Source: an uncultured Bacilli bacterium
Lineage (GTDB): Bacteria; Bacillota_I; Bacilli_A; RF39; UBA660
Assembly (NCBI GenBank): GCA_958413985.1
Contig: CATYVZ010000006.1
Span: 2,072-66,071 of the forward strand
Direction: 5' to 3'
DNA length: 64,000 nt
Below the pieces are notes generated by a model. The model worked only from the letters and a program-made list of their open reading frames with translations. It was not told the DNA's origin and searched no databases. The position numbers and the translations under genes were made by a program. Shown here in pieces: positions 4,301 to 29,310 of this stretch (the first letter of the stretch is position 1; each line of letters begins with the position of its first letter).

Positions 4301-4407
4301 AGCTTGTCGCTATTCCTAGACATTTATATTATATCATATTTTTTAAATAAGTATACTGTTTATAATCGAAGTTTCATACTTTCCCAAAATGTTAATTATT
4401 TGTTTTA

Positions 4408-6542: not shown

Positions 6543-7135
6543 ATCACCTTTTTGCTTATACTAATTCCATCGCCGACATCATAAAAATGTGTTTCATAAT
6601 CAGAATTTTCCTTTAAAAATTGTCGATATTGGCGAATTTTATCAGTAAGACGCCTTAAATTTTTACTTTTTTTCTCACAACTGTCAACTAAACCATGAAA
6701 ATTCAAATTGTCAGTTATAATGTATTTTTGATCGTTTAAATTTTCTGAAAATTTTTTAAAAAACTTAATATTTTGTGCTTTAGCAGCATCTAAAAAAATT
6801 AGGTCAAATTTTTCATTTAATTCAACATCAAAAGCATCGGCGTGAATTAATTTGATTCTATTTTCTAGTTTAAAATTTTTAACATTTTTAACTGCTTCTA
6901 AATATCTTTCCTCATCGCGTTCAACTGATATTATCTTGATGTTTACGTCGACTAAAGCCATTTTTATAGCGGAATAGCCAATAGCTGTTCCTATTTCTAA
7001 AATCGTTTTAATATTATTTTTACTAATGAAGTTAGTTAAAAAATCAATTCCATCTTTCTGCATAATTGGAATATTATATTTAAAAGCATATTCTTCGATT
7101 TGTTTTAACATGAATAACCTAAATACTCTAAACAC
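6539..7135 (-). CDS. class I SAM-dependent O-methyltransferase (YrrM-like)
   Basis: EIGTAIGYS SAM-binding motif. It sits next to mltG, as yrrM does in Bacillus. Confidence 0.7.
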   Translation of the reverse strand: MFRVFRLFMLKQIEEYAFKYNIPIMQKDGIDFLTNFISKNNIKTILEIGTAIGYSAIKMALVDVNIKIISVERDEERYLEAVKNVKNFKLENRIKLIHADAFDVELNEKFDLIFLDAAKAQNIKFFKKFSENLNDQKYIITDNLNFHGLVDSCEKKSKNLRRLTDKIRQYRQFLKENSDYETHFYDVGDGISISKKVI

Positions 7136-8157
7136 TTCTGTTGATGTTCAGCATAACTTAAAGAATAATAAGTTTTAGTAGAATTACTGTCAAAAACATT
7201 TGCTAGAAAAAATAGATAGTTGTTTTCTTCAGGATAAATAACTGCTTTAATGCTTGCTTCTCCTGGTAATCCACCAGGACCGACTGGTAAACCATAGTAT
7301 TTGTAAGTATTATATGGCGAATCAACCGCTAAATCTGCGCTAGTGTAAGTTAATTTCCACTCGTTTATAGCATAACCGATAGTAGCACAGCTTTCTAATT
7401 TTATTCCTCTATTAAGACGATTGTAAAACACTTGGGCAATCATTGGGCGATCTTCATCTAAAATCGCCTCATGTTCGACGATCGAAGCTAAGGTTAGAAT
7501 TTCATGAACAGTATAGTCACTACTTTCGATTTCATTTTTGTACTTAGTTAAAATTTCATTCATTTTATCTAACATTTTATAAGTTATTTCTTCGATTGTG
7601 CTAGTAGGATAAATTTCATAAGTTGCGGGAAAGAAATATCCTTCTAAGTTATATCTTAAATTATCATTTTTAACTTCGTTGGTAATAAACCAATATTTAT
7701 CGATTAATTTATCGATTACTTCCTCATTTTGCCAGTAGTCTAACAACTCGTCAGTAGTATGATCTGTGACTTCGCTTATATAAATAGCTACGTCAGTAAT
7801 ATGTTTACCTTCGGGAATTACGAAGGAAGTAGTTTCTGTTTTTCCACCTTTTTCTAATGTCTCAATTATTTTTTTGACCCCCATATTTTCGTTTAAAACA
7901 TAAGTACCTTTTTCTAAATTTTCTGGATTAAATATTTTAACATAGATTTTGTAAAATAATTCTGATCTAATTAGATTATTTTCTTTTAACAAAGGAGCTA
8001 ATGAAAGATATGTGGTATTTTCTTGGACTTCGAATACTACTTCTTTACTTTCTTTGCTAACTGCTCCTATTCCATAGTTATAAGATAAACAACCGACTAT
8101 TATTATTACAGCTAAAATGACGATAGCAAACTTATAAATATTAACATACTTCTTCAT
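7105..8157 (-). CDS. mltG: endolytic murein transglycosylase MltG (YceG-like)
   Basis: N-terminal TM and a YceG domain, in the conserved ruvX-DUF1292-mltG context. Confidence 0.85.
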   Translation of the reverse strand: MKKYVNIYKFAIVILAVIIIVGCLSYNYGIGAVSKESKEVVFEVQENTTYLSLAPLLKENNLIRSELFYKIYVKIFNPENLEKGTYVLNENMGVKKIIETLEKGGKTETTSFVIPEGKHITDVAIYISEVTDHTTDELLDYWQNEEVIDKLIDKYWFITNEVKNDNLRYNLEGYFFPATYEIYPTSTIEEITYKMLDKMNEILTKYKNEIESSDYTVHEILTLASIVEHEAILDEDRPMIAQVFYNRLNRGIKLESCATIGYAINEWKLTYTSADLAVDSPYNTYKYYGLPVGPGGLPGEASIKAVIYPEENNYLFFLANVFDSNSTKTYYSLSYAEHQQKCLEYLGYSC

Positions 8158-8173
8158 AATGATAAGACGAGCT

Positions 8174-9227: not shown

Positions 9228-10541
9228 CTAGAGTTGATTATCTAAATCATTTCTTTGACCATCTTTTATTATATATTCTTCTTTAGTTCTTGAATCATAG
9301 ACATAGGTTACCTTTTGTGGTGTATTAACTTCTTCTTTTTTTATAAATATATTTTCTATCTTTTCTTTTACCTGTTCTTTGTTAAATGGTTTTGATATGT
9401 AATCTACAAATCCTTCTTTGATATATTTTTCTCTTGCTCCTGATACTGCATCAGCTGTTAATGCTATTACTGGTGTTTTAAATTCTTTATTTTCTTTTAA
9501 TTTGGCTAAAGCTCTTTCACCACTCATATTAGGCATCATTATATCCATCAATATTAAATCATATTCTTTTTCTTTTACTTTTTCGATGCACTCTATTCCA
9601 TCATAACATTCTTCTATTTCAAAGTTAAAATCTTGCAATGCTTTAATTGCTACTTTGATGTTTAATTTATTATCATCTACTATCAATATCTTTTTGCCTG
9701 ATAAATCTTTTTTGTTTTCGTTAGATAACTCATTTATATCGATATTTTCTCTTTTTTGATTACTTATTTTCTGAGGTAAATAAACTACAAATATCGATCC
9801 TTTTCCGTATTGACTTTGAACATTTATCTTACCACCCATCATCTCTACTAATGACTTAGTTATAGCTAGTCCTAATCCGGTTCCTTCGGTTGTTGAATTC
9901 ATCTCAACATCTAATCTTTCAAATTTAGTGAATAATTTGTTGATATTTTCTGCTTTTATTCCTTTCCCTGTGTCCTTAACACTTATGATTAATTTACATA
10001 TATCTTTTTCATTGATACATTTTATTCCTAATGTTATCATACCTTTTTCTGTATATTTGATCGCATTAGACAATAAATTGTTGATTACTTGTTTTATATG
10101 AATCCTATCCCCGATTAATTCTTCCGGTAAATCTTCAGCTATATCTAATTTAAATTCGATTGGTTTTTCTTTTATTCTACTAGTCGTCACTTTACATAAT
10201 GACACTATTTCTTTTTTTAAATTATATGGAGTATTGATAATTTCCATTTTTTCTGATTCGATCTTATTTATATCTAAGATATTACCTACTATTTCCAATA
10301 GCGTTTGTGAAGCATTTTGAATATCAGTAGCATCTAAAGCTACTTCGTTTGGTACTTGATCTTTATAGCTTACGATATCTTCACTTAATCCTACTATTGC
10401 ATTTAATGGCGTTCTTATCTCATGAGACATACTACTTAAAAAGTCACTCTTAGCTCGATTAGCTTTCTCAGCTAAATCTTTTGCTAGAGTCATTTGTTGT
10501 AACATCTTAACATCTGGATTTTCGATTGTAAAATACATGAT
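9228..10541. repeat. 1314-bp direct repeat, copy A. It is >99.7 % identical to 22500..23813 and covers the HisKA-HATPase-REC coding part.
   Basis: The two copies align base-for-base at an offset of 13272 bp, with 3 differences: 9231/22503 (g/a), 9258/22530 (a/g) and 10518/23790 (a/g). The latter two are synonymous. Identity stops abruptly after ...aaatacatgat. Confidence 0.9.
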
Positions 10542-13511: not shown

Positions 13512-14028
13512 TTACAAATCAAATTCGTAAATATTTTCTATGATTTTCAATCCACCAACATTTCCATCTTCACTATCGATTATTTTTCCACCTAATGCCG
13601 TGTAAAAATTTTCAGATGGACTTCCTTTTAAACATCTAACTATTATATTTTTATATCCCATATTTTTTAACAAATCAAAACATTCTGTAATTAATTTTTT
13701 ACCAATTCCTTTTCTTTGATTTTCTTTTTCTATATATATTGAATAAACTTCACCCATATCTACATAATCATTTCCACGTCCTTTACCATAGCAAGCAAAA
13801 CCCAATATGTCATTATCTTCTTCATAAACAATATAATGATATTCATTATCTTTTTTTATAGCTTCTTTTATATTATTATTTCTTTGTTCAAAATTTTTCT
13901 CTTGATTTATAAATATTTCTTCAGGAAAAAACTCACTATAAGTTGTCTTCCATGAATTTATATGTATTCTAGTTATTTTTTTTATGTGTTTATAGGTAAT
14001 CTTTGAAATACTTTTACATTTTTTCCAT
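13512..14028 (-). CDS. GNAT family N-acetyltransferase whose 5' end is disrupted by a +1 frameshift in an A6 tract. This could be a pseudogene, a slippage site or a sequencing error.
   Basis: The GNAT body frame is open from 14033 down to 13512 (...ITRIHINSWKTTYSEFFPEE...YHYIVYEEDNDILGFACYG...QRKGIGKKL...) with no in-frame start. An ATG at 14028 is followed by ATGGAAAAAATGTAA. Removing one A from the tract (14019..14024) fuses the ATG in frame, giving MEKCKSISKITYKHI... A TRTG-extended -10 (TGTGgCATAAT) lies at 14070..14081. Confidence 0.5.
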
Positions 14029-14170
14029 AAATATCACTTAATTCTTTATCTATATTTGATTCAAGATGTGATTATGCCACACGAAAGAAAATGGATATTA
14101 AAAATAATCTTATGATTTAGGACTAATTCTATGATTTATTTATCAACTTTAATATCAATAATAAAACACA

Positions 14171-14887
14171 TCATATATTTAGAATACTTTTAACTTCTTT
14201 TGCAGCTTGACAAATCAATTTAGTGCCATTTGACAAACATATTTTTCCATGACCAGATAAAACTATATCAGCTTTATATTTTGTTAACTTTATTATACTA
14301 TTAACAATTGCTTCTTTATTAAAAGCTGGATCCCCTTCCCAACCAAATAAAAATTTATTTAAGAAGACGCCATCTGCTTCCAATGTGTCACCGGTAAACA
14401 AAACAAATTCACCATCAACTTTTGCCCTAATAGCCATTCCTCCATTTGTATGCCCTGGTATCATAATAAATTCAAATACAATACCATTGATAATCATTTC
14501 TTGATCTACAAATATTTCTACATCAGGAATAAACGCAGGAAATGATTGTTCTATGTCATCTGATGTTCCTTTTGGACCGCCTTGTTTACAATAATTTGTA
14601 TCACCTGCCCCTACTATTATCTTTGCACCTGTCATTTGTAATTCTTTAGCACCGCCACAGTGATCATGGTGTCCATGAGTAAGAATAACATGCGTTATAG
14701 GCGAATTAATATTAAATTTTTTTAACGTTTTTCTTATTATAGCAGGACCGTTTAAAGCCTCTCCGCAATCTATTAATATTAATCCTTGATCTGTATTTAT
14801 ACCATATACTTCGCCTAATGTCCCTTTATTATTTTCAGCAGCAAAGCAGCTACCACTTAAATAAAATAAATTATTTGAAATTATCAA
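14171..14887 (-). CDS. MBL-fold metallo-hydrolase
   Basis: HxHxDH motif (THGHHDHCGG) with the downstream His and Asp ligands. TTG start with a GGAGG RBS. Confidence 0.75.
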   Translation of the reverse strand: MIISNNLFYLSGSCFAAENNKGTLGEVYGINTDQGLILIDCGEALNGPAIIRKTLKKFNINSPITHVILTHGHHDHCGGAKELQMTGAKIIVGAGDTNYCKQGGPKGTSDDIEQSFPAFIPDVEIFVDQEMIINGIVFEFIMIPGHTNGGMAIRAKVDGEFVLFTGDTLEADGVFLNKFLFGWEGDPAFNKEAIVNSIIKLTKYKADIVLSGHGKICLSNGTKLICQAAKEVKSILNI

Positions 14888-14915
14888 TTAAATCATCCTC
14901 CTTAAGATAAATTAT

Positions 14916-15623
14916 TTAATCAGCAATATCTACTGTTTCATCATCATTTGAAATAAGTTCAATATTTCCTTTACAAATTCTATAACATTTCCCATAAATT
15001 TTATTATTAAATACATATGATTTATCAGGAAGTCCATAAATAATTCTATTATTTGATTCTTTTATTATTGCATCCATTTGAATCTTGTTAGGATTATCAC
15101 AATCAAAATGCGGCTCAACATTAATTGTAGTTAAATCAAGTCCTTCTAATATAGTAGGGTTAGTTAAATCTTTTTCATTTTCAGGACTACTAAATACAAT
15201 TTTTGCACTATTTATTGAACCAGCACTTATGCCAACAATACACGCATCAGTTTTTTTTATATATTTTTTAAGATTTATGTTATTAAAAAACTTGTTTTGT
15301 TGAAATGCATTACCACCACTAAGAAAAATAAGTGAACTATTATTAAGTACATTATCAATATCTTCTTTATTACGATTATCAAGTACAACATTTTCCTTGA
15401 AGTGAAGCCCAGATAACGCTAGGACTTTCATATCTAATTTTAGATACTCATCATTTTGTTCATAATTATCAGGATCGCTCGCAATAATAACAAATTTATT
15501 ATAATTATTTATATTTTCCTTCATATTTTTTAAAAAATTATTATCTTCAAAAAATTTTACTGGTATTTTTTTACCATTTTCTTTTTTTATCCCCCCAATA
15601 TTACTAGCTAAAAATAATTTCAT
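14916..15623 (-). CDS. S51 family peptidase (peptidase E/cyanophycinase-like; Asp-Xaa dipeptidase fold)
   Basis: LSGGN and GISAGS nucleophile-elbow motifs, plus conserved His and Glu. Strong AAGGAGGA RBS. Confidence 0.65.
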   Translation of the reverse strand: MKLFLASNIGGIKKENGKKIPVKFFEDNNFLKNMKENINNYNKFVIIASDPDNYEQNDEYLKLDMKVLALSGLHFKENVVLDNRNKEDIDNVLNNSSLIFLSGGNAFQQNKFFNNINLKKYIKKTDACIVGISAGSINSAKIVFSSPENEKDLTNPTILEGLDLTTINVEPHFDCDNPNKIQMDAIIKESNNRIIYGLPDKSYVFNNKIYGKCYRICKGNIELISNDDETVDIAD

Positions 15624-15633
15624 TTTATCCTCC

Positions 15634-16656
15634 TTATTTATTAATGTTATACAATAAACTATTTTCTATATTTTTTTGTAAAGTTAACACTTTGTAAAAC
15701 TCATCTTTTTTTTGTTCAAAACTAGAATGATATTCCGCACCCAAATAATTTATAATTAAATTAACTACATCTTCATTAGGATATTGTAATTGCTCATTCC
15801 AATAATTTAATACACGTAAATATTGCCTAAATTTCATTCTTAAATGCTTGGATGAATGATTAGTAACATCTTCTTTTAATAAAATTGCTACAGCTACTAA
15901 TGCATCAGCAAATTTTTCTTTCATAATAGAATCTATATCAAGAAAATCTGCTATTCTTGAGCTGGATACTGTTGAACTTGTACCAAATTTACACATTGAT
16001 AAAGCTAAGTTACTGATTCCCATATCGACAGCTAACTTTCTTTCATTATTTTCCATAACAACAAAAGAAGCAAAATTCAAAAACTCGTTTGTACCTTTTT
16101 TTTTAAGTCCTATATTAAAATCCCTTCCAAAAATATTTTTTTCATCCATACCATATCGATGTCTATAATGTTCAATACTTGATTGATCAACTAAACGAGT
16201 TATTTTACTATCAACATTTTCAGTAGCCTTTATTAAATCCTCATCCGTAGAACTTACCCTTATACAAAGATTTTCAGGAGAGATATGCAAATATTTTTCA
16301 TCAGTTAAATAATCAAAAGTATCTTTAACAATTCTTTCTAGTTCTGGTTTTGCTATTATTCCCATTCCTCTATAATAACAGCCAAATTTTTGCGGTACAT
16401 TTGTTTGTAAATATTTAAATGATTTAAATTTCATACACTCTTGCACGATATATCTTCCAACATCACCGTAATTTTCAGTCTCTAAGTATTTTTTTAATGG
16501 TGAAATATTAGAACCAATAAAGTCAACCGTTGGATCAATTTTTGAAGTAACATTAACTGCAAGTTCTTCAATGTATCCTTTCTCATTAAAACAAACTTTA
16601 AATTTTTCTTCTATAAAATCTAAATATTCGCTTTTGCTAATTTTTTTATCACTCAT
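15634..16656 (-). CDS. stand-alone paralog of the alanyl-tRNA synthetase catalytic core (class II aaRS-like, AlaRS N-terminal domain only)
   Basis: 340 aa that align by eye to the first ~250 aa of the alaS in this window. DPTVDFIGSNISPLKKYL matches DPSVLFNTAGMQPLIPYL, QECMKF matches QKCIRT, ISPENLCIRVS matches IPVERLAVTVF, and AVDMGISNLALS matches the motif-3 region NVDTGMGYERV. The tRNA-recognition and editing domains are absent. Confidence 0.55.
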   Translation of the reverse strand: MSDKKISKSEYLDFIEEKFKVCFNEKGYIEELAVNVTSKIDPTVDFIGSNISPLKKYLETENYGDVGRYIVQECMKFKSFKYLQTNVPQKFGCYYRGMGIIAKPELERIVKDTFDYLTDEKYLHISPENLCIRVSSTDEDLIKATENVDSKITRLVDQSSIEHYRHRYGMDEKNIFGRDFNIGLKKKGTNEFLNFASFVVMENNERKLAVDMGISNLALSMCKFGTSSTVSSSRIADFLDIDSIMKEKFADALVAVAILLKEDVTNHSSKHLRMKFRQYLRVLNYWNEQLQYPNEDVVNLIINYLGAEYHSSFEQKKDEFYKVLTLQKNIENSLLYNINK

Positions 16657-16661
16657 TTATA

Positions 16662-18506
16662 TCACTCTACTTCTTTTTTATCGTTAGACATTTTTAATAG
16701 TTCTCCTAAATAATAACTAATATTAGATTCAGTTACACTATTATTAATACTACCTTTATACGAATCAAGTTTTAAAAAACTATCAATTTCTTTTCCCAAT
16801 TGTTTAACAGTTTCTTTATACATTTGTGTATTAAATCTAGGAGTACATATTAATATACTTTTTGTAAGATTTATTTTATGTTTTTTAATTAATTCAACTG
16901 TTTTAGCCACTGATTCATTAGTATCCCCCATCATACCAAGCATAAAGAAACCATTATAATTAATTCCTGCTTTTTTGATTGCATATAGGGCTTTTAATAA
17001 TTGTTCATTAGAATAATTCTTGTTATTAATTTTACGAACATTTTCATCAAAACTTTCAATTCCTAACCAAATTAATTGGCAACCTGCTTTTTTCATAACA
17101 ACAAGAGTATCATAATCTATTGAATTTATACAAATCTGACATTGCCATTTGATTTGAATATTAGCCTTTATCATTTCTTTACATAAATTTTTTGCGTAAT
17201 TTTTATCAAGTATGAAATTCTGATCTAAGAAAAATATTTCTGTTATTCCACGTTTTTGTATTTCTTTTAATTCAGCTACTACTGATTCTATTTTTCTAAA
17301 ACGAACACTTTTGGCAAAAAAGTTGTAACAAAAAGCACAATTAAATGGACACCCTCTACTTGCCTGAACAATACTCCAGTGCAATTTTCTTACTGGCATA
17401 TTGTCATGATACCTATAACCAAAATAACAATCTAAATGAATCAAATCATAATTAGGTATATATTTACACCATTCAGTTGGATGTTGTTCATTCAAATCTT
17501 CTCTTGTTTTAATTAATTTTTTATTCTTTTTATAAATAATATTGGGAAGATTTTCAATTGGAAGATTTTGATCCATATCCCTAATTATATTAGCAAGCTG
17601 GATATCAAATTCGCCTTTTAATATATAATCTGGGTTACAATCTTTAAAGACGATATCTGGTCTCACAGTACCATGTCCTCCGCATACAATAATTGGTATA
17701 TTATTAAACTTATTTTTGATAGTTTTTACATATTTTGTAAAAACTACATAACGATAATCAACAAAATAATTATGTACTTGATCAACTGTTGAAGAACAAA
17801 TGACTATTCCTTTTTTGTAATCACGTATAATATTAAGTAAATCAGTTAATGAATAATTATAAATTCGATTATCAAGAATATCAACATCTATAAAAAAATT
17901 ATTTTTTAAATAAGTTGCACAATTCATTAAAGCTAAAGGCGGTTGAACAAAAGTTGTTCCATTTAAAAATTCTGGTATTAAGAATATGTATTTCCCTTTT
18001 TTCTTGAATTTTTTACTCATATCATTATTTAAACTTGTAATTGCATCAGTTAAATAATCTGGGGCTTCTTTAGTAATTTCTTCTATTTTCTTTTTACTTA
18101 TATCAAGTTGTTTTGGGCTATAAACACGATGCGTATTTTTTATAAAGTATAATATAGCAACAAGTTTTCTGGGTTTCATATCCTCGATAGCAAAAATTGC
18201 ATCAAATATTTCATTCTGTAAAGATTTTGTAGTATACTTATAAATTATTGATGATAATTCAATGATCTGTGCTATAAAATTTGATTGTTTTTTAATGCTA
18301 CTAACAACTTTTCTAACATATTCTCTTTTTTCCACTAAAGTTGCCTGTTTTAAAAAATATGTACGCATAATAAGCAATAAATTAATTTGTTCTGATTCAC
18401 TAAATTTATCAATTTTTTTTATAGTTTCATCATAAATTTCTTTTTGTTTCTTATTATTATATGTATTTATTCTTTTTATTTTTAATAATAATGTTTCTTT
18501 ATCCAC
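16662..18506 (-). CDS. B12-binding-domain radical SAM enzyme (class B radical SAM) with an unassigned ~170-aa N-terminal domain
   Basis: CxxxCxxC (RGCPFNCAFCYN), a preceding Rossmann-like B12-binding region (...IPIIVCGGHGT...), and a GTG start with an AGGAGA RBS. It lies 17 nt downstream of the preceding gene. Confidence 0.75.
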   Translation of the reverse strand: MDKETLLLKIKRINTYNNKKQKEIYDETIKKIDKFSESEQINLLLIMRTYFLKQATLVEKREYVRKVVSSIKKQSNFIAQIIELSSIIYKYTTKSLQNEIFDAIFAIEDMKPRKLVAILYFIKNTHRVYSPKQLDISKKKIEEITKEAPDYLTDAITSLNNDMSKKFKKKGKYIFLIPEFLNGTTFVQPPLALMNCATYLKNNFFIDVDILDNRIYNYSLTDLLNIIRDYKKGIVICSSTVDQVHNYFVDYRYVVFTKYVKTIKNKFNNIPIIVCGGHGTVRPDIVFKDCNPDYILKGEFDIQLANIIRDMDQNLPIENLPNIIYKKNKKLIKTREDLNEQHPTEWCKYIPNYDLIHLDCYFGYRYHDNMPVRKLHWSIVQASRGCPFNCAFCYNFFAKSVRFRKIESVVAELKEIQKRGITEIFFLDQNFILDKNYAKNLCKEMIKANIQIKWQCQICINSIDYDTLVVMKKAGCQLIWLGIESFDENVRKINNKNYSNEQLLKALYAIKKAGINYNGFFMLGMMGDTNESVAKTVELIKKHKINLTKSILICTPRFNTQMYKETVKQLGKEIDSFLKLDSYKGSINNSVTESNISYYLGELLKMSNDKKEVE

Positions 18507-18523
18507 AATTCATGTCTCCTATA

Positions 18524-20707
18524 TTATTTTTTAAAATCAGTTTCACTAATTTTACTTTCAACTATTTTAAACTTTTTATTTTCATATACTATTTTACAAT
18601 AATCAATATCAATATATTGTTCACCATCAATTGCTGACTTCAAATTACTCATTGTTGCTCCATGAGTAATGATTGCAAACTTCTTATAAGAACTATTAAC
18701 TAAATATTTTTCTAAAAAATACATTAATCTTTCCCTAACATGATTAATACTTTCACCATCAGCTACAACTTTATTATAATTAACAATTGCCTCTTTACCT
18801 TCTTGACTATTTAAAAAATCAGAAAGTGGTTTACCTTGAAATTTTCCCACATTCCAAGCTCTTAACTCTTTATGAAAAGATACTGGTATTTTAAAACCAT
18901 TATTAGCTAGTTCAACGGTTCTTCTAGTCCTAATAAGATCTGATGAATAAATATATTCAATTTCATTTTTCTTTAATTCTAAAGCAATTTTATTAATTTG
19001 CTCTAATCCTTTATCAGTAAATTTCAAAGATGCATCTTCAAATGTTCCTCTAATTTTATTTTCAACATTCCAATTAGTTTCACCATGTCTAAAAATATAA
19101 ATTTCTTTTTTGTCATTTTTTTTACTATTCTTCTCTTCTAACTTTTTCATTGGAGATAATCTATCTCTTAATCTGAAATCCATATTTTTATTATCGTTAA
19201 CAAAATCTTCTATTTTATTTATTTTTTTATCTGGAAAAAACATATTATAATATGCAATTGCTGTTTGAACATCTTGTTCTGACATTTCAAAGTGTCCTAG
19301 TTTAACTAACCCTAAGAAATCTTTATACTTATCCCTATCTAGTTGTTCACTTAATTCTTGATTTAATATTGAAGTATTAGAATTTAGATAATATTTTTTT
19401 ATAACATTTTTAGGTGATTTTATTAATTTTTGCATACTAACAGGCATGTTTTCTATTAATTTTTCATTTACAAGCCCTTGCTTTATGTAATCTTGTAATA
19501 TTCTAATATAAGCATAAAGCCTTATTTTTGCATCAGCAAAAAGGATTGCACTTGCATAATCTCTAATACCATTAGCTTTCATTAACGTAACTGTTTTAGG
19601 TGATATTTCTAATACAATTTTTTCTCTATATTTTGAACCATTATCAATATATGCTCTTGTAATTAAATTTGTCAATGTATGATTTAATGATGTTTCGTAA
19701 TTATCTTCATAGATATTTAATTGATCATCTTGAATACTATTTTGCCATGTACTAATGTTGCCATTATATTCTACAAGCCAATCTAATCCAAATCCACCAT
19801 CAGAATTATATACACGTGACGGAAAATAATTTTGTGATTCATCTAAATCTATGTCATACAGTTCTACCATTTTCATAAATGATTCATTATTATGTAGATT
19901 TGGTCTAAATGATGGATAAAATACCCTTGATATTCCAATTATTATTTCAAAACCAGAATCGAGTATTAATTTTGATTTCCAAGGCATTATCTTAATAATT
20001 TTATCATCATCAGATTTATTAGGTTGAAACTTTTCAATTTTATATTTTCTCCCAATTGTTTTTAGATTATTTTCTAATGTTGAATCTTCTTTAAATGTTT
20101 TTATTTGTAAAGTAAAGTTTTTATTATATCTATATTTAGATTCAAATATATTAATTAAGTTTTCTAACGGAAGATGTTTTAATTTAATACTATGATATTG
20201 ACTAACACTTAATCTAATAGAGATACGTGCTTTCTTTTTTCTTTTTTTGATAGCTTGATATATTTCATCTAAATATTTTTCCGCTCTTTCTTTATTATAT
20301 GCCCATAGACCACCAGTAACTAAAACTATCCTATCAGCGTTTATTTTTTCAATACTTTTTAATAGTGCTTCTTTTTCTAAAAAAGGCTCTCCGCCACCAG
20401 ATATTTGTAAATAACCAACATTTGCTTTATTAGCAAAATCAATAAATTTATCAACACCTTCAGGAGTAAATTGATTCTTAATATTCTTTTTACTAGCTGA
20501 CGATAAAGCTTTAAAACAGCAGAAAGGACAGCCAACATCACACACTGATGTAAACATAACCAATACCAATGATTTTCCTGCATATTTTTTCTTATCAATT
20601 TTTAATAAACCTTCTTGTTTATTAATTGAATCTATATACATTTCTGGATAATTAAATATATTTTCTATATTACAATCAATATTTTTTATTTCTTCTTTTT
20701 TCACCAT
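18524..20707 (-). CDS. fusion protein: N-terminal radical SAM domain, a central domain of unknown function, and a C-terminal histidine phosphatase (phosphoglycerate-mutase-like) domain
   Basis: CDVGCPFCC radical-SAM cysteine triad with a QISGGGEP SAM-binding motif. The C-terminus has IYIFRHGETNWN (RHG catalytic motif) and ...IITHGATM... typical of the His_Phos_1 superfamily. Confidence 0.75.
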   Translation of the reverse strand: MVKKEEIKNIDCNIENIFNYPEMYIDSINKQEGLLKIDKKKYAGKSLVLVMFTSVCDVGCPFCCFKALSSASKKNIKNQFTPEGVDKFIDFANKANVGYLQISGGGEPFLEKEALLKSIEKINADRIVLVTGGLWAYNKERAEKYLDEIYQAIKKRKKKARISIRLSVSQYHSIKLKHLPLENLINIFESKYRYNKNFTLQIKTFKEDSTLENNLKTIGRKYKIEKFQPNKSDDDKIIKIMPWKSKLILDSGFEIIIGISRVFYPSFRPNLHNNESFMKMVELYDIDLDESQNYFPSRVYNSDGGFGLDWLVEYNGNISTWQNSIQDDQLNIYEDNYETSLNHTLTNLITRAYIDNGSKYREKIVLEISPKTVTLMKANGIRDYASAILFADAKIRLYAYIRILQDYIKQGLVNEKLIENMPVSMQKLIKSPKNVIKKYYLNSNTSILNQELSEQLDRDKYKDFLGLVKLGHFEMSEQDVQTAIAYYNMFFPDKKINKIEDFVNDNKNMDFRLRDRLSPMKKLEEKNSKKNDKKEIYIFRHGETNWNVENKIRGTFEDASLKFTDKGLEQINKIALELKKNEIEYIYSSDLIRTRRTVELANNGFKIPVSFHKELRAWNVGKFQGKPLSDFLNSQEGKEAIVNYNKVVADGESINHVRERLMYFLEKYLVNSSYKKFAIITHGATMSNLKSAIDGEQYIDIDYCKIVYENKKFKIVESKISETDFKK

Positions 20708-20761
20708 TTTTCAACATCTACTTTCTTTGTTTTTTTTACAAGATTCCTATTATTAAACATA

Positions 20762-22201
20762 CTATCTTTTATTAAATTCTTTTATCTTTCTTTTTGCATA
20801 AGTGGTCTGTGCTTTATTTATCCAATCTTCTCTTGGCCCAAATGATAAATCATCAGTAACTATTCTAACTCTATCTTTATTTTGTAATACATAATCTACT
20901 GGTACATATTCATCATTTACAAACACTCCAACCATTGTGTTTCCTATATCTGTATGAATTTTATAGGCAAAATCTATCGCTGTCGCCCCTTTGGGAAGCT
21001 CTATAATATCTCCTTTAGTTGTATAAACATATACTCTATCAGCAAATAATTCACTTTTTACTTGATTTATAAATTGTTGATTATCTCCAAACATAGAATT
21101 TATTTCTGTTAACGATTTAAAAAATTGAAATTTTTCTTTTAGATTCTCTTGCATCACATCTCTTGCTTTTCCTTTTTGTTCATCCCAATATGCCGTTAAA
21201 CCAAACGATGCTACTTTGTCCATATCGAAAGTTCTAATTTGAGTTTGAACTAATCTATCATCAGGACCAAACACTGTCGTATGTAAACTTCTATACATAT
21301 TTGTTTTTGGATTACATATATAATCTTTAAATTTATCATTTATTGGATGATATTCTTGATGAATCAAACCTAATGTTAAGTAACAATTTTCTATTTCATC
21401 AACCATTATTTTTAAAGCAAGCAAATCATGAATATCTGATAATTTATGACCTTCATTTAATCTTTTGTATATACCATATATATTTTTAGTTCTTACTTTT
21501 ATTTCATTAGGTATATTCCTATTTTTTAATAATGTTTCTATTTTATATAGCATTTCCTTAAGACAGTTTTTACTTGTTTCTTCAATCTTTGTTTTTCTTT
21601 CTTCAATTTTTTTATACATGTCTGGTTTAAGATATTGTAAAGATAAATCTTCTAGTTCTGACTTTATTCTATATGCTCCGATATAATATGCAAGTGGTAC
21701 AAATATTTCCATCGTTTCAAGGGCATTTTCTTTTTGCTTAAATTCTGATTTAAACTCTAATGTTCTCATATTATGAAGTCTATCGGCAAGTTTTATTATA
21801 ATTATTCTTACATCTTCTGTTATTCCTGTTATTATCTTTCGAGTATTTGCTAAATTTTGATCTTGTTTCGAAGAAAAATTCATTTTAGATAGTTTTGTTA
21901 CTCCATCTACTAAATTAGCAATATTTTGGTTAAAATCATGGGCAATATCTTCTTTAGTAATATTAGTATCTTCTAAAGTATCATGTAAAAGACCTGCACA
22001 TACTGTATCTTTATCAGCATGCATGTCAGATAAAATATATGCAACATTCAAAGGATGACTTATATATGGTTCACCACTTTGTCTCATTTGTCCTTTATGC
22101 AAAGCATCTGCATATTCATAAGCCTTTTTTACAATTCCTATCTCATCTGGATTATATTCTTCTAGTTTATTTAATAAATCTTGTAACACAATATTATTCA
22201 T
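20762..22201 (-). CDS. RelA/SpoT homolog (long RSH; HD hydrolase + synthetase + TGS) that lacks the C-terminal helical/ACT(RRM) region. The true start is at 22201.
   Basis: HD motif LLHDTLEDT, synthetase motifs (IHDLLALKIMV; RSLHTTVFGPDDRLVQTQIRTFDMDKVASFGLTAYW) and a TGS domain (VYVYTTKGDIIELPKGATAIDFAYKIHTDIG). The ATG at 22201 has a GGAGGTG RBS. The 24-codon upstream extension in the ORF track lacks one. Confidence 0.8.
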   Translation of the reverse strand: MNNIVLQDLLNKLEEYNPDEIGIVKKAYEYADALHKGQMRQSGEPYISHPLNVAYILSDMHADKDTVCAGLLHDTLEDTNITKEDIAHDFNQNIANLVDGVTKLSKMNFSSKQDQNLANTRKIITGITEDVRIIIIKLADRLHNMRTLEFKSEFKQKENALETMEIFVPLAYYIGAYRIKSELEDLSLQYLKPDMYKKIEERKTKIEETSKNCLKEMLYKIETLLKNRNIPNEIKVRTKNIYGIYKRLNEGHKLSDIHDLLALKIMVDEIENCYLTLGLIHQEYHPINDKFKDYICNPKTNMYRSLHTTVFGPDDRLVQTQIRTFDMDKVASFGLTAYWDEQKGKARDVMQENLKEKFQFFKSLTEINSMFGDNQQFINQVKSELFADRVYVYTTKGDIIELPKGATAIDFAYKIHTDIGNTMVGVFVNDEYVPVDYVLQNKDRVRIVTDDLSFGPREDWINKAQTTYAKRKIKEFNKR

Positions 22202-22250
22202 CAAAACACCTCCGAATAGAAAAATAATCGGTGCTAAAAACACATAATGT

Positions 22251-22388
22251 TTAACTAGCACCGATATTATCATATTTGTTATTTAAAGCAGAATAGAAAC
22301 ATGAACAAATAATGTCAGTAAAATATTGATTTCTAACACTTAATTCTTTTACATAATCAATGATTAATTCATCAATTAGTTTTATCAT
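22251..22388 (-). CDS. small protein (45 aa), first gene of the operon
   Basis: MIKLIDELIIDYVKELSVRNQYFTDIICSCFYSALNNKYDNIGAS. It has a very strong RBS (GAGGGGGAA + 6 nt + ATG) directly downstream of the operon promoter. Confidence 0.45.
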   Translation of the reverse strand: MIKLIDELIIDYVKELSVRNQYFTDIICSCFYSALNNKYDNIGAS

Positions 22389-22420
22389 ACTAAATTCCCC
22401 CTCAAATAAATTTAAGCAAT

Positions 22421-22448
22421 ATTTTACTACTTTACAAAAAAATGTCAA
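22421..22448 (-). promoter_or_regulatory. sigmaA-type promoter (TTGACA-16-TAAAAT) for the operon small ORF -> rel-like -> rSAM/His-phosphatase -> B12-rSAM -> AlaRS-like -> S51 peptidase -> MBL hydrolase
   Basis: Minus strand reads TTGACAtttttttgtaaagtagTAAAAT, followed by intergenic gaps of only 5-54 nt down to 14171. Confidence 0.45.
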
Positions 22449-22499
22449 TAGTTTTATAAAAATAAATCACCGTTAAAACAATTAATATCTAAAATACAT

Positions 22500-23813
22500 C
22501 TAAAGTTGATTATCTAAATCATTTCTTTGGCCATCTTTTATTATATATTCTTCTTTAGTTCTTGAATCATAGACATAGGTTACCTTTTGTGGTGTATTAA
22601 CTTCTTCTTTTTTTATAAATATATTTTCTATCTTTTCTTTTACCTGTTCTTTGTTAAATGGTTTTGATATGTAATCTACAAATCCTTCTTTGATATATTT
22701 TTCTCTTGCTCCTGATACTGCATCAGCTGTTAATGCTATTACTGGTGTTTTAAATTCTTTATTTTCTTTTAATTTGGCTAAAGCTCTTTCACCACTCATA
22801 TTAGGCATCATTATATCCATCAATATTAAATCATATTCTTTTTCTTTTACTTTTTCGATGCACTCTATTCCATCATAACATTCTTCTATTTCAAAGTTAA
22901 AATCTTGCAATGCTTTAATTGCTACTTTGATGTTTAATTTATTATCATCTACTATCAATATCTTTTTGCCTGATAAATCTTTTTTGTTTTCGTTAGATAA
23001 CTCATTTATATCGATATTTTCTCTTTTTTGATTACTTATTTTCTGAGGTAAATAAACTACAAATATCGATCCTTTTCCGTATTGACTTTGAACATTTATC
23101 TTACCACCCATCATCTCTACTAATGACTTAGTTATAGCTAGTCCTAATCCGGTTCCTTCGGTTGTTGAATTCATCTCAACATCTAATCTTTCAAATTTAG
23201 TGAATAATTTGTTGATATTTTCTGCTTTTATTCCTTTCCCTGTGTCCTTAACACTTATGATTAATTTACATATATCTTTTTCATTGATACATTTTATTCC
23301 TAATGTTATCATACCTTTTTCTGTATATTTGATCGCATTAGACAATAAATTGTTGATTACTTGTTTTATATGAATCCTATCCCCGATTAATTCTTCCGGT
23401 AAATCTTCAGCTATATCTAATTTAAATTCGATTGGTTTTTCTTTTATTCTACTAGTCGTCACTTTACATAATGACACTATTTCTTTTTTTAAATTATATG
23501 GAGTATTGATAATTTCCATTTTTTCTGATTCGATCTTATTTATATCTAAGATATTACCTACTATTTCCAATAGCGTTTGTGAAGCATTTTGAATATCAGT
23601 AGCATCTAAAGCTACTTCGTTTGGTACTTGATCTTTATAGCTTACGATATCTTCACTTAATCCTACTATTGCATTTAATGGCGTTCTTATCTCATGAGAC
23701 ATACTACTTAAAAAGTCACTCTTAGCTCGATTAGCTTTCTCAGCTAAATCTTTTGCTAGAGTCATTTGTTGTAACATCTTAACATCTGGGTTTTCGATTG
23801 TAAAATACATGAT
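22500..23813. repeat. 1314-bp direct repeat, copy B (partner of 9228..10541)
   Basis: See copy A. Confidence 0.9.
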
Positions 23814-26372: not shown

Positions 26373-28133
26373 CTATTCTAAAATAGCCTTAATTCTTCTA
26401 ACTCCTGCACTACTTGCTTCCTCTTTAACGATCTTAAACTTACCTAATTCACTGGTATTTTTCACATGTGGACCGCCACATAACTCTTTAGAAATATCAC
26501 CAATGCTATAAACAGTTACAATATCTGGATACTTCTCGATAAACATGCATTCAGCTCCAGATTTTATCGCTTCTTCCTTGCCCATTTCTACAACAGTGAC
26601 ATCTAATCCTTCATCGATCCAATCATTGACTAATTGTTCTGTTTTTTGCTTTTCTTCATCAGTTAATTTATGGTCACATGAAAAATCGAAACGCATTCTT
26701 TCACTAGTAATATTACTTCCTTTTTGATGAATATTTTTATCGACGACAATTTTTAAAGCTGCATTTAACAAATGAGTAGCTGTGTGATATTTTATTTCTT
26801 TATCTGAATCACCAGCTAAGCCACCTTTAAATTTACCACTTGAAGCAGTACGTGACAATTCCTGATGAGCTTTAAATTTCTCATTAAAACCTTCGATATC
26901 GACAACAATTCCTTTTTCATTAGCTAGTTCAACTGTCAATTCAATAGGAAAACCATAAGTATCGTATAGTTTAAACGCTAAATCTTTATTTAGTGATTTT
27001 TCTTTTAAATTGTCAGTTATTTTTTCAAACTCTTTTAATCCTTTAGCTAAAGTGCGGTTAAACTTATTTTTTTCATTAGTCAAACCTTCTAAAATGACTT
27101 CTTTATTTTTAGTTAATTCAGAATAGTATTGTGCATATTTATCGATAATCATATTAGCAATGATAACTTCCCAATTACTATTTTCATCAATCTCTAATTT
27201 TTTAGCATGTCGAATCGCACGTCTAATCAATCTTCTTAAAATATAACCTTGATCTGTATTAGAAGGTTTAATGCCAGCTTCATCACCTAATATAAAGACA
27301 GCCGTTCTGATATGGTCAGCAATTATTCTTATACTATTAGGATTTTCTTCATATGTATATTTTGCTAATTGTTCGATCTTTTTAACAATATCTATCCATA
27401 CACTTGATAGATAGTTGTCAGTAACACCTTCTAAAACAGCAACAACTCTTTCATATCCCATCCCAGTATCGACATTTTTTTGTGGTAGTTCAGTAATGTG
27501 ACCATCGTTATCTTTATAAAACTCCATAAATACATTATTCCATATTTCGACCCAACGTTCATCGTTTGGATCAAATTTAGCTGGTATTTCATCATTGCTT
27601 CGAAAATAAAATATTTCTGTATCTGGTCCGCAGGGCCCAGAATCGCCAGCAATCCAAAAATTATCTTCTTTTCCTAAATAGGCAATATGTTGATCACTTA
27701 TTCCTAAACTTTTCCAAATGTCAGCAGAGACATCATCTTTAGGAATATTGCCTTCACCTTTAAAAACTGTTACCGCTAATCTTTCGACAGGTATTTTTAA
27801 AATCTTAGTTAAAAATTCAAAACTATATCCAATACTTTCTTTTTTAAAGTAATCTCCTAATGACCAATTACCCAACATCTCAAAAAAAGTATGGTGTGTC
27901 ATATCGCCAACGCTGTCTAAATCGTTAGTTCGAATACATTTTTGATAGTCGACTAATCTTGTTCCATATGGATGTGGTCGTCCCATTAAATAAGGAATCA
28001 ACGGTTGCATTCCCGCTGTATTAAATAAAACGGAAGGATCATTTTCAGGAACCACCGGAGCTGAAGGGATCTGTTTGTGCCCTTTACTTATAAAAAAATC
28101 AATATATAAATCTTTAAGATTCATCTTTACCAC
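26373..28133 (-). CDS. alaS: alanyl-tRNA synthetase, short form (586 aa; catalytic, tRNA-recognition and editing domains, no C-Ala domain)
   Basis: N-terminus ...NDPSVLFNTAGMQP...HHTFFEMLGNWSLGDYFK..., editing-domain end ...HTATHLL...CGGPHV. Confidence 0.85.
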   Translation of the reverse strand: MVKMNLKDLYIDFFISKGHKQIPSAPVVPENDPSVLFNTAGMQPLIPYLMGRPHPYGTRLVDYQKCIRTNDLDSVGDMTHHTFFEMLGNWSLGDYFKKESIGYSFEFLTKILKIPVERLAVTVFKGEGNIPKDDVSADIWKSLGISDQHIAYLGKEDNFWIAGDSGPCGPDTEIFYFRSNDEIPAKFDPNDERWVEIWNNVFMEFYKDNDGHITELPQKNVDTGMGYERVVAVLEGVTDNYLSSVWIDIVKKIEQLAKYTYEENPNSIRIIADHIRTAVFILGDEAGIKPSNTDQGYILRRLIRRAIRHAKKLEIDENSNWEVIIANMIIDKYAQYYSELTKNKEVILEGLTNEKNKFNRTLAKGLKEFEKITDNLKEKSLNKDLAFKLYDTYGFPIELTVELANEKGIVVDIEGFNEKFKAHQELSRTASSGKFKGGLAGDSDKEIKYHTATHLLNAALKIVVDKNIHQKGSNITSERMRFDFSCDHKLTDEEKQKTEQLVNDWIDEGLDVTVVEMGKEEAIKSGAECMFIEKYPDIVTVYSIGDISKELCGGPHVKNTSELGKFKIVKEEASSAGVRRIKAILE

Positions 28134-28773
28134 CCTCTATAACTTTAGAAAATTCTGATACAACTTCTTCGATCGATAAATTAGTAGAATCAATATAAAC
28201 TTGCTCACTAGTTCGTTTTAAAGCTCCAACCTCTTTATGCATATCGTTATAATCTCTAAATTTTATGTTTTCTAACACATCATCATAACTAATATCGATG
28301 CCTTTTTCTTTGTTTTGCAACATTCTTCTCGCAACCCTTTGTTCTAACGATGCATCTAAATAAAACTTATATTGTGCGTCTGGAAAGACGACCGTAGTAA
28401 TATCTCTGCCTTCCATGACAACATCGTAATTACTGGCCATTTTTCTTTGCAAATCAACCATATTTTTTCTTACTTCAACGATACTTGAAATCGGTGAGAC
28501 AATTTCTGTCACTGCCTTACTTCTAATTTCATCAGTTACATCTTCACCATTTAAATAAACTTTATTATCCAAATCGATTCTAATATCGATCTTTCTAGAT
28601 AATTTTATAATTGCTTCTTTATCATTTAAAGTTAAATTGTTTTTCAAACAAGCTAAAGCTACACAACGATAAGTTGCCCCTGTATCGATGTTTACTAAAT
28701 TATACTTTTTCGATAATAGACTAGCTATGGTTCCTTTCCCACTGCCACAAGGACCATCGATTGCTACTTTCAT
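28114..28773 (-). CDS. cmk: cytidylate kinase
   Basis: MKVAIDGPCGSGKGT P-loop and the overall Cmk layout. Confidence 0.85.
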   Translation of the reverse strand: MKVAIDGPCGSGKGTIASLLSKKYNLVNIDTGATYRCVALACLKNNLTLNDKEAIIKLSRKIDIRIDLDNKVYLNGEDVTDEIRSKAVTEIVSPISSIVEVRKNMVDLQRKMASNYDVVMEGRDITTVVFPDAQYKFYLDASLEQRVARRMLQNKEKGIDISYDDVLENIKFRDYNDMHKEVGALKRTSEQVYIDSTNLSIEEVVSEFSKVIEGGKDES

Positions 28774-29310
28774 TTAAGAAACCTCCTTTAAAATATTTAT
28801 AATCTGTTTTTTTGTTTCGTTAATATCATTATTGTAAACGACATAATCAAAACCTTGATAATCATCTAAATTAGTTTCAGTTATATGATTTTTCTGTTCT
28901 AACGTTAAATTATTATCATCCTTATTAATTCTAATAGTTATACAATCAAATAAACTTTTAGGTATTTCTATTTCTTCGATCAATCGTGCATCAGTGATAA
29001 TAATAATATCAAAGAAACAACTATAAACTTTAATGTCTTCAACTAACCTTCTAATCAATAACTTATCGTCAATTTTTTTAACTAAATCTATTCCTAATGA
29101 TTGTAATAAATCACGTGGTTTATCTTGCTCACTACCATCCCAAGTAGTTATTTTTTTGATATATTGTTTTAAGTAATAAGCATAAGATAACTGAATGCAT
29201 TTTTTATCATGATAGTATTCTTCGATAAAGTCAGCTATTAAATTTTTACCACTTTTAGCTTTGCCAGATAAAATAAATATTTTAGGATTTCTATTATTAT
29301 ATTGCATCAT
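28774..29310 (-). CDS. P-loop NTPase, putative nucleoside/nucleotide kinase
   Basis: Walker A FILSGKAKSGKN and Walker-B-like IIITDAR. Family not resolved. Confidence 0.4.
   Translation of the reverse strand: MMQYNNRNPKIFILSGKAKSGKNLIADFIEEYYHDKKCIQLSYAYYLKQYIKKITTWDGSEQDKPRDLLQSLGIDLVKKIDDKLLIRRLVEDIKVYSCFFDIIIITDARLIEEIEIPKSLFDCITIRINKDDNNLTLEQKNHITETNLDDYQGFDYVVYNNDINETKKQIINILKEVS

Follow-up and report, generated by a model that had tools for sequence, protein, structure and literature searches.

A three-gene module of an alanyl-tRNA-synthetase-like protein, a radical-SAM/phosphatase fusion and an S51 peptidase, found behind a leader–rel unit in an uncultured Bacilli bacterium and possibly involved in aminoacyl-nucleoside synthesis

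The minus-strand region 14171–22448 of the 64,000-nt stretch from an uncultured Bacilli bacterium analysed here (contig CATYVZ010000006.1, positions 2,072 to 66,071; hereafter the window) carries seven tightly packed genes, which a first-pass annotation made from the sequence alone had read as one operon and one candidate pathway for a modified nucleotide or nucleoside. Judged by comparison with related loci, the region is a composite of a resident unit, consisting of a short leader open reading frame (ORF) and rel, and an inserted five-gene cassette (14171–20707). The conserved unit within it consists of three genes, encoding an alanyl-tRNA synthetase (AlaRS)-core-like protein, a fusion of a radical S-adenosylmethionine (SAM) domain with a histidine phosphatase, and an S51 peptidase. 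We tentatively propose, at a little less than an even chance, that the cassette serves the synthesis of, and self-protection from, an aminoacylated nucleoside remodelled by the radical-SAM enzyme. The broader idea of the annotation, a nucleoside or nucleotide that is aminoacylated, modified by radical-SAM chemistry and dephosphorylated, gains comparative backing, as the triad travels together, occurs in fused forms and has parallels in AcmF, MccG/MccF and PolH/PolJ. The idea of seven genes forming one conserved pathway unit has to be given up, since the leader and Rel form a resident unit and most copies of the module lack Rel.

The seven minus-strand ORFs are all present where they had been placed, and the gaps between them, given as 5–54 nt, measure 49, 54, 17, 5, 10 and 28 nt in the direction of transcription. 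Every domain assignment of the annotation was confirmed with Pfam and NCBIfam, or with the predicted fold in the case of the AlaRS-like protein. The loci and proteins used for comparison (L007–L091 and P0119–P0421) are matches from public genomes and metagenomes, annotated by our own profile searches. Across gut Bacilli, Clostridia, Christensenellaceae and Patescibacteria, the core triad was found in about 30 loci, and its genes are adjacent to each other in Mycoplasma sp. CAG:611, uncultured Bacilli, Erysipelotrichaceae, Clostridium sp. CAG:417, Christensenellaceae, Clostridia and Patescibacteria. As the core gene set is conserved across phyla, its clustering goes far beyond chance. Wherever an AlaRS-like gene has more than 3 kb of flanking sequence, a peptidase gene of the S51 or S66 family lies within 6 kb. 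The 951-aa protein P0119 is a triple fusion of radical-SAM, phosphatase and S51 domains, and in two loci (L025 and L026) the radical-SAM and phosphatase parts are encoded by separate genes. L025 also carries the AlaRS-like gene together with an S66 peptidase (MccF/LdcA family) in place of S51, and S66 peptidases are likewise seen in L089, L090 and L091. In L033 and L049, a true LysRS that passes the equivalog cutoffs occupies the usual place of the AlaRS-like gene, in company with S51, a B12-type radical-SAM enzyme, the radical-SAM/phosphatase fusion, which its gene overlaps, and an RlmN-like gene. By this comparison of gene content, the fusions, splits and replacements tie the parts into one pathway. 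The test of neighbourhood conservation proposed in the annotation thus comes out in favour of the core triad, whereas the B12-type radical-SAM and metallo-beta-lactamase genes of the cassette are lineage-specific and rel is resident.

The AlaRS-core-like protein (15634–16656, minus strand) has 340 aa, with an aminoacylation and a helical domain and no editing domain. It has no match in Pfam and a weak match to the short AlaRS of NCBIfam (1.4e-6; 27 bits to NF002436 against a cutoff of 529), and a profile search against the PDB gave nothing meaningful for the family, so that the fold search alone was successful. The AlphaFold2 model, made from an alignment of 23 family members, has a pLDDT of 90, and its best solved matches in Foldseek are the AlaRS catalytic fragments 3hxu, 1riq and 9jc7 (E 5e-16 to 1e-14, TM about 0.7, about 14% identity). 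The helical domain that follows the catalytic core in the model aligns with the AlaRS catalytic fragment as well, and the predicted structure clearly has the fold of this fragment. An hhalign comparison with the AlaRS encoded elsewhere in the window gives a probability of 66% over 118 columns. When the two are aligned, the basic residue of motif 2 is kept as K or R (QKCIR against QECMK), and the Asp of DTGMG is kept as the invariant D211, which we take to be the counterpart of D235 of the E. coli enzyme, the Asp that binds the alpha-amino group. The Arg of motif 3 is lost, with ER of GMGYER standing opposite non-basic residues and DTGMGYER aligning to DMGISNLA. About 40 positions are invariant across the family, and the protein therefore seems to be an active enzyme that handles nucleotides in an altered way.

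The AlaRS-like family is rare, though diverse. A word-indexed search places it in 59 clusters, and a full hidden Markov model scan covering 1.84 billion representatives yielded 472 with E ≤1e-3, the best 150 of which are mostly 300–400 aa long. The gene context of the distant members is drawn from three loci (L089, L090 and L091); a further protein, P0392 (L088), is found on a contig of 1.6 kb. These distant genes have no radical-SAM partner, yet they lie beside S66 peptidases, and in their vicinity are GNATs, 340-aa class IIb aminoacyl-tRNA synthetase (aaRS) cores, and HD, methyltransferase or DCD genes. Because the distant genes adjoin S66 also where radical SAM is missing, the deepest layer of the system is an aaRS-like protein paired with a peptidase of the S51 or S66 family, with the radical-SAM/phosphatase partner defining one branch of it. 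Fusions of AlaRS-core-like proteins to a receiver domain, an HD domain, a GNAT or a SAM methyltransferase occur in P0392, in P0274 and P0421 (L089), in P0358 (L090) and in P0371, P0392 being the one with the response-regulator receiver domain. The class IIb cores are encoded in L089 and L090, and L089 also encodes a methyltransferase–S66 fusion. In L091, the AlaRS-like gene called at 7001–8170 does not yield the database protein under translation table 11 and is broken up by our ORF finder, and this genome may use an alternative genetic code.

The radical-SAM/histidine-phosphatase fusion (18524–20707, minus strand) is 727 aa long, with the radical-SAM part covering residues 1 to about 525 and the phosphatase residues of about 535–727. 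The N-terminal part matches Fer4_12 (6e-8) and shows CX3CX2C at C56, C60 and C63, which together with a partial TIM-barrel fold places it in the radical-SAM superfamily. The C-terminal part belongs to branch 1 of the histidine phosphatases, with a match to His_Phos_1 (6e-29) and the motif RHGET, and its nearest solved relatives are the broad-specificity enzymes PhoE and CobC. The radical-SAM domain fits no named family, and in the model its core is followed by a helical extension of about 200 aa (residues 337–517). The nearest structural match of the core is EpeE, and BlsE, MoaA, viperin and AbmM match as well; the values in the match table are 18.6 for EpeE/YydG, 15.0 for SuiB, 13.8 for ChlB, 13.7 for BlsE, 13.3 each for anSME and SkfB, 13.0 for MoaA, 12.6 for viperin and 10.3 for AbmM. 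The invariant Cys residues of the family are those of the SAM cluster only, and there are none for an auxiliary cluster or for a donor Cys. Distant homologues of the radical-SAM domain have as neighbours dNK-like, thymidylate-kinase-like and adenylate kinases, NUDIX and RpiB–NUDIX proteins, EEP phosphatases, an RmlD-like reductase, glycosyltransferases and ABC transporters, a setting concerned with nucleotide and sugar-phosphate chemistry. In L050, L051, L055 and L056 such homologues belong to another conserved cluster, with two paralogues of a family of about 370 aa (motifs FFLWLETQ, HSSFN.GK and ESGHY), a nucleotidyltransferase-like protein, a 290-aa protein, an EEP phosphatase and ABC-transporter genes. 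The 370-aa family was considered as a divergent AlaRS-like protein and rejected, the hhalign probability being below 1%. Another aaRS–phosphatase fusion, in this case with a class I aaRS, is found in P0150 (1167 aa; tRNA-synt_1g, tRNA-synt_1 and an anticodon-binding domain with His_Phos_1).

The S51 peptidase (14916–15623, minus strand), the third product of the core genes, matches Peptidase_S51 (2e-15) and has the nucleophile elbow GISAG and the histidine motif EPHFD; the S51 equivalog models were not reached, with 33.6 bits against 156 for PepE and 17.3 against 126.6 for cyanophycinase. The two remaining genes of the cassette are lineage-specific accessories. One of them (16662–18506, minus strand) encodes a B12-type, class B-like radical-SAM enzyme of 614 aa (Radical_SAM 4e-26), in which the B12-binding domain PF02310 remains below the threshold (22.4 against 32.1 bits). 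Its strong NCBIfam matches, to the PhpK family (the best, 124 bits against a cutoff of 600), HpnJ and BchE, are all below the family cutoffs, and it is probably a tailoring methylase. The other (14171–14887, minus strand) encodes a hydrolase of the metallo-beta-lactamase fold with the motif HGHHDH (Lactamase_B 1.4e-23) and a weak precomputed match to Apyc1. Both genes are found only in the window and in L012, L013, L030, L031 and L059, and the B12-type gene in addition in L033 and L049. The RlmN/Cfr-like radical-SAM accessory of other loci (L009, L023 and L032–L034) has no N-terminal domain and keeps both mechanistic Cys residues.

The core module is mobile and dispensable. In six loci (L016, L018, L020, L036, L038 and L046), the triad and a large serine recombinase with Resolvase, Recombinase and Zn-ribbon domains split a D-Ala-D-Ala carboxypeptidase (dac) gene, whose N-terminal fragment ends with SITKIMTI and whose C-terminal fragment resumes with KIMTA or KIMTC. 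These elements are about 6 kb long, the triad is their sole cargo besides the recombinase, and the module is equipped there with a promoter and, behind the S51 gene, a terminator of its own. A different serine-recombinase element splits dac in L012, L030 and L059, and it carries a helix-turn-helix protein, a sigma-like protein, leader–rel and the five-gene cassette. Two unrelated large-serine-recombinase elements have thus hit D-Ala-D-Ala carboxypeptidase (S11) genes at different positions, and excision would restore the dac gene, in the manner of the elements that interrupt sporulation genes. Ahead of the recombinase in the dac-splitting elements there is a conserved ORF of 36 aa. In L009 a tyrosine integrase is found next door, and decayed copies of the module are present in L019 and L081. 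An origin from phages is unsupported, as neither the AlaRS-like nor the radical-SAM profile was found in 2.9 million viral contigs of IMG/VR. Membership in a known defence system is unsupported as well: PADLOC 2.0 returned nothing for the three core proteins, and weak matches only for the B12-type enzyme, Rel and the metallo-beta-lactamase-fold hydrolase.

In the window the cassette follows a resident leader–rel unit. The σ70-type promoter TTGACA-16-TAAAAT given in the annotation was found again (22421–22448, minus strand) as the best match of the region, with 11 of 12 positions. It is intergenic and has equivalents upstream of rel in L027, L012, L013 and L007; its weight rests on this position and conservation, since promoter-like matches as a whole are no commoner than in shuffled sequences (77 found, 83.7 expected). 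The small ORF does exist, but the 65-aa version with a TTG start would begin on the -35 hexamer, and the true ORF is one of 45 aa (MIKLIDEL to NIGAS), running from the ATG at 22388 to the stop at 22251 (22251–22388, minus strand) and preceded by the ribosomal binding site GAGGGGG. It has no match in Pfam or NCBIfam, and a short ORF sharing the motif RN(Q/K)Y(F/Y)T(D/N)II(C/Y)SC is found in the equivalent position of L027, which has no cassette. Between this ORF and rel lies a terminator-like hairpin with a U-run (22215–22265, minus strand; -19.2 kcal/mol, z -4.6), absent from the earlier description of the region, with arms at 22256–22265 and 22227–22236 and the leader stop codon (22251–22253) inside the stem. 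Five rel leaders have one and the same layout (window 22215–22448, minus strand; L027 6745–7004; L012 4200–4465; L013 147–361; L007 8209–8460): a short ORF rich in Cys, Phe and Ser, a hairpin that holds or just follows its stop, a U-run and the ribosomal binding site of rel. In L007 the stop is located about 6 nt ahead of the stem. The hairpin stems of the other four leaders differ in sequence while stability is kept (-16 to -27 kcal/mol, z -2.9 to -8.5). A gathering-threshold search of the window against Rfam, together with an E-value search of 22150–22520, found no known RNA element in the rel leader, which looks like a candidate new leader-peptide attenuator of a stringent-response gene. 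A leader of similar arrangement ahead of the module in L014 and L015 has no support as a homologue, as it is missed by the model built from the five rel leaders and its hairpin is no better than those of shuffled sequences.

Rel itself (20762–22201, minus strand; 479 aa) starts at the ATG at 22201 behind the ribosomal binding site GGAGGTG, in agreement with more than 100 close homologues; the domain search, run on the longer ORF 20762–22273, gave HD_4 (8e-42), RelA_SpoT (4e-29) and TGS (1e-20) in Pfam. It passes TIGR00691 (529.5 against a cutoff of 499.2), matching positions 1–450 of the 687-position model, and ends at residue 479 without the helical, zinc-finger and ACT/RRM regulatory domains after TGS. 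Like the long RSH proteins (Rel/SpoT) it has HD, synthetase and TGS domains, with 440 bits to Bacillus subtilis Rel (6yxa); unlike them it lacks the regulatory half, has a Gln at the position of the catalytic Glu, and follows a leader ORF and a terminator. The HD motif LLHDTLED is intact in 117 of the 120 close homologues checked. The synthetase catalytic Glu is replaced by Gln in the window protein (LVQTQIRT, residues around 318–326) and in all 120 of these homologues, which read L[VI]QTQIRT where B. subtilis has LEVQIRT. The corresponding change E323Q eliminates synthetase activity in RelSeq (PMC13299517), and the 479-aa Rel of this clade may be a hydrolase-only RSH protein, so that the 3'-pyrophosphotransfer step by Rel suggested in the annotation is weakened.

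Rel proteins of 479–481 aa form more than 120 clusters at ≥88% identity (7669 matches below 1e-100) and far outnumber the module, the AlaRS-like protein having 59 clusters. In L027–L029 (Rel 89% identical) a GNAT gene comes immediately after the promoter, short ORF, hairpin and rel, with no cassette in between. By its distribution, the small ORF together with Rel is thus a resident unit that is common in the clade and also found without the cassette, and because rel is followed directly by the GNAT gene in these cassette-free relatives, 14171–20707 is read as an insertion between the two. The module could use the attenuated rel promoter, or Rel itself. Co-transcription with rel, as had been claimed, is plausible, considering the tight spacing, the lack of called terminator-like sites in the cassette and of a hairpin in the gap between the rel and radical-SAM genes.

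In the proposed pathway, the five-gene cassette between rel and the GNAT gene would be read through from the rel promoter. The radical-SAM domain would remodel a phosphorylated nucleotide, on the sugar or on the base, and the fused phosphatase would strip the phosphate to give a modified nucleoside. To this the AlaRS-like enzyme would add an amino acid, probably from aminoacyl-tRNA as in AcmF, because the Arg of motif 3 that contacts ATP is lost; a self-made adenylate is less likely. The product would mimic an aminoacyl-adenylate or the 3' end of aminoacyl-tRNA, and the S51 peptidase (at other loci S66 of the MccF family) would hydrolyse the aminoacyl-nucleoside bond for self-protection or turnover. 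Tailoring of the product would be carried out by the B12-type radical-SAM enzyme and the metallo-beta-lactamase-fold hydrolase in the window, and at other loci by the RlmN/Cfr-like protein acting as an adenine C-methylase.

Each part of this scheme belongs to a known superfamily and its logic has precedents; our literature searches for this gene combination found no description of it and no paper on the module. AcmF is a truncated AlaRS-like protein that has lost ATP-binding residues and moves Ala from Ala-tRNA to a nucleoside sulfamate, giving ascamycin; its partner is the AlaRS AcmD, and the hydrolase AcmE has been hypothesised to remove the alanyl group (PMC12945691). The architecture of the AlaRS-like protein fits that of AcmF, which is truncated to the aminoacylation and tRNA-recognition domains and aminoacylates a nucleoside analogue, and a full aaRS is likewise found near the module (AlaRS in the window, LysRS in L033 and TyrRS in L007). 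Unlike the ascamycin system, the module has no sulfamate or nucleocidin-type genes, its nucleoside would come from the radical-SAM/phosphatase protein, its hydrolase is of the S51 or S66 family and not an alpha/beta hydrolase, and its hosts are gut Bacilli and candidate-phyla-radiation bacteria instead of Streptomyces. The amino-group Asp (D235 in E. coli) is kept in the module, whereas AcmF has the change D232E.

The S51 peptidase MccG and the S66 peptidase MccF cleave toxic aminoacyl-nucleotides as self-immunity, and stand-alone S51 homologues of MccG give resistance to microcin C; in the S51 tree, which has six clades, MccG falls in clade V (PMC9239234). Similarly, S51 and S66 are interchangeable in the module beside what is presumed to be synthesis of an aminoacyl-nucleotide-like compound, and GNATs, the class of MccE, recur in the wider family. 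The microcin C parts themselves were not found: the seven window proteins gave no ThiF-type match, and in the related loci neither the called genes nor the conserved neighbour clusters include an MccA peptide, an adenylyltransferase of the MccB type or the exporter MccC. The octosyl acid nucleoside is made by PolH, a radical-SAM enzyme, together with the phosphatase PolJ (PMC5365060), and PolH/NikJ with PolJ/NikL of polyoxin and nikkomycin synthesis resemble the module in that radical-SAM action on a nucleotide is followed by a dedicated dephosphorylation. They differ from it in that the module has the two activities fused, a phosphatase of the histidine-phosphatase superfamily and the helical extension of about 200 aa. 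For the small number of genes there is a parallel in thmABC, where three genes including a resistance hydrolase suffice for the radical-SAM nucleoside antibiotic 4'-thiothymidine (PMC12691670). This too is a minimal cluster of patchy distribution, in which a radical-SAM enzyme is joined by an enzyme that handles nucleotides and by a self-resistance hydrolase, though with a kinase and an NTPase as partners and no aminoacylation; the comparison is one of descriptions.

Several points weigh against synthesis of an aminoacylated nucleoside. Each catalytic step is one that we infer, and no chemistry was observed; what the loci and models document directly is that the genes are linked and in places fused, that the module moves, and which folds the proteins have. 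The closest structural match of the modelled radical-SAM domain is the peptide epimerase EpeE and not a nucleotide enzyme, and in L042 and L048 the radical-SAM/phosphatase gene has neither an aaRS-like nor a peptidase neighbour. The retained basic residue of motif 2 and the amino-group Asp could still permit ATP-dependent activation by the AlaRS-like protein. The likeness to AcmF is one of architecture and description and not of compared sequences, and that of the S51 peptidase to MccG holds at the family level only. The minimal elements encode no exporter, and co-transcription with rel is argued from gene spacing only.

The strongest competitor, though we think it unlikely, is a conflict or anti-phage module in which a toxic modified nucleotide or aminoacyl-nucleotide is made upon infection or stress, with S51 as the antidote. 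The carriage of the triad as sole cargo besides the recombinase in small elements would suit such a role, as would the tyrosine integrase in L009, the AbiE and HipA neighbours in L025, the DCD genes beside the AlaRS-like/S66 pair in L091, the patchy distribution, the decayed copies and the missing exporter. However, the three core proteins have no PADLOC match, the module is absent from the viral contigs, most loci are without a clear defence-island context, and no sensor or trigger is evident; the fusion of the phosphatase to the radical-SAM domain moreover speaks against a triphosphate chain terminator.

Modification of a macromolecule, with the aaRS paralogue and the radical-SAM enzyme acting on tRNA or a translation factor, as EpmA/EpmB act on EF-P and GluQRS on tRNA, is in our judgement a good deal less probable again. 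In beta-lysylation of EF-P by EpmA/EpmB (PoxA/YjeK), a class II aaRS-core paralogue of about 325 aa likewise cooperates with a radical-SAM enzyme, and the retained helical domain of the AlaRS-like protein, the RlmN/Cfr-like RNA methylase accessories and the TGS domain of Rel could be taken in the same sense. EpmA is LysRS-like, however, EpmB is a pyridoxal-phosphate-dependent aminomutase, and the pair is immobile and has no peptidase or phosphatase. A mobile, decaying and patchy module fits poorly with a core role in translation, the RlmN-like proteins lack the N-terminal domain, no conserved target gene is found nearby, and the obligatory S51/S66 peptidase and the phosphatase would be left without a role.

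The module might also be a resistance island against exogenous aminoacyl-nucleotide antibiotics, with an MccG-like S51 as the effector and the other genes recycling the fragments. The resistance to microcin C given by stand-alone MccG homologues (PMC9239234) is a precedent, and the immunity classes S66 and GNAT recur, but a hydrolase alone is sufficient for resistance, and the strict linkage and the fusions with the aaRS-like and radical-SAM/phosphatase proteins indicate synthesis; we regard this explanation as improbable. Slightly less credit still goes to the alarmone-derived signal suggested in the annotation, where Rel would supply (p)ppGpp or a related nucleotide for conversion by the cassette. 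It draws on the two types of module, that of the window and that of L007, which are located directly behind rel, on the joint presence of rel and the cassette inside the dac-splitting element of L012, L030 and L059, on the receiver-domain/AlaRS-like fusion P0392, and on the general ability of aminoacyl-tRNA synthetases to make Ap4A. Against it, most modules have no Rel and Rel is very widespread without the module, all these Rels have Gln at the synthetase catalytic Glu, a change that abolishes synthesis in RelSeq (PMC13299517), and a signal made of a nucleotide alone would leave a peptidase without a task.

A ribosomally synthesized and post-translationally modified peptide, with the small ORF as the precursor, maturation by radical SAM and trimming by S51, is very improbable. 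The small ORF is rejected as a precursor, as it accompanies rel in cassette-free loci and ends inside the terminator hairpin, and an EpeE/YydG-type epimerase was dismissed as well, given that no invariant Cys is found beyond the SAM cluster and that the rel-leader model finds no relative in the rel-free module loci. Where short ORFs are seen in the minimal elements, they lie next to the recombinase or at the junction with dac, and neither the aaRS-like protein nor the phosphatase would have a role in such a pathway. Chance co-location of unrelated housekeeping genes, named in the annotation as the outcome that would speak against a pathway, can hardly be maintained: it is true that Rel, the GNAT and the AlaRS nearby look resident, but the triad is conserved across phyla, is sometimes fused and moves as a unit.

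Outside the cassette, the GNAT gene (13512–14030, minus strand), which the annotation had found to fit either of its two readings, is by comparison with L027–L029 the usual downstream neighbour of rel and resident. Its start codon is lost by a 1-nt frameshift in an A-run (ATGGAAAAAATG...), and independent metagenome contigs give an identical call of 97 aa. The flanking hybrid histidine kinases, of which the annotation had said the same, are not conserved partners, and like the AMP-binding enzymes they have no support as such, their likeness to genes near other modules being generic. The kinase genes carry a direct repeat of 1.27 kb, 100% identical between the upstream copy (22500–23770, minus strand) and the downstream copy in the second kinase gene (about 9230–10500, minus strand). 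The repeat corresponds to the cytoplasmic part of both kinases, which differ in their membrane sensor parts. Between the copies, at a distance of 13,272 bp, lie rel, the cassette, the GNAT gene, orf122 and an AMP-binding enzyme, and metagenome contigs break at the repeat; this suggests a recent gene conversion or duplication, and a substrate for deletion.

Further upstream (26373–29310, minus strand), the gene for a short-form AlaRS of 586 aa shares 20 nt with the cytidylate kinase gene and follows a dNMP-kinase-like gene, an unusual arrangement that looks resident. The protein was considered as a resistant duplicate, a reading that found no support, since it passes the short-form AlaRS equivalog NF002436 with 806.8 bits against 529 and by this measure looks like a bona fide AlaRS. 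The window as a whole has a G+C content of about 27% and nearly all genes on the minus strand, and uncultured gut Bacilli, "Mycoplasma sp. CAG:611" among them, supply the closest public loci. Two RNAs fit a Bacillota/Mollicutes-like host, namely a class B RNase P RNA (54796–55128, minus strand, 267 bits) and a 6S RNA (4144–4325, minus strand, 72.5 bits).

A bolder and more doubtful generalisation, which we hold to be possible, though less likely than not, is that the AlaRS-core-like family (472 representatives among 1.84 billion) is a new class of ribosome-independent synthases of aminoacyl-nucleoside or aminoacyl-nucleotide toxins with S51 or S66 immunity hydrolases. In the present branch the scaffold would be a new one built by the radical-SAM/phosphatase protein, carried by mini-elements in uncultured human-gut Bacilli and candidate-phyla-radiation bacteria, and wired here to a leader-attenuated, synthetase-dead Rel. 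To our knowledge, few natural products have been reported from these groups. If the proposal holds, the module would be a compact three-gene pathway to a new aminoacyl-nucleoside antimetabolite, probably an inhibitor of aminoacyl-tRNA synthetases or of translation, produced by uncultured gut bacteria with reduced genomes and by candidate-phyla-radiation bacteria. It would provide a second AlaRS-derived aminoacyl transferase after AcmF, far more widespread than the first, and a function for an unnamed radical-SAM family with a fused phosphatase, and it would extend the immunity principle of MccG/MccF beyond the microcin C clusters. The candidate attenuator in the rel leader and the natural Glu-to-Gln change in Rel bear on the stringent response in an abundant gut clade.

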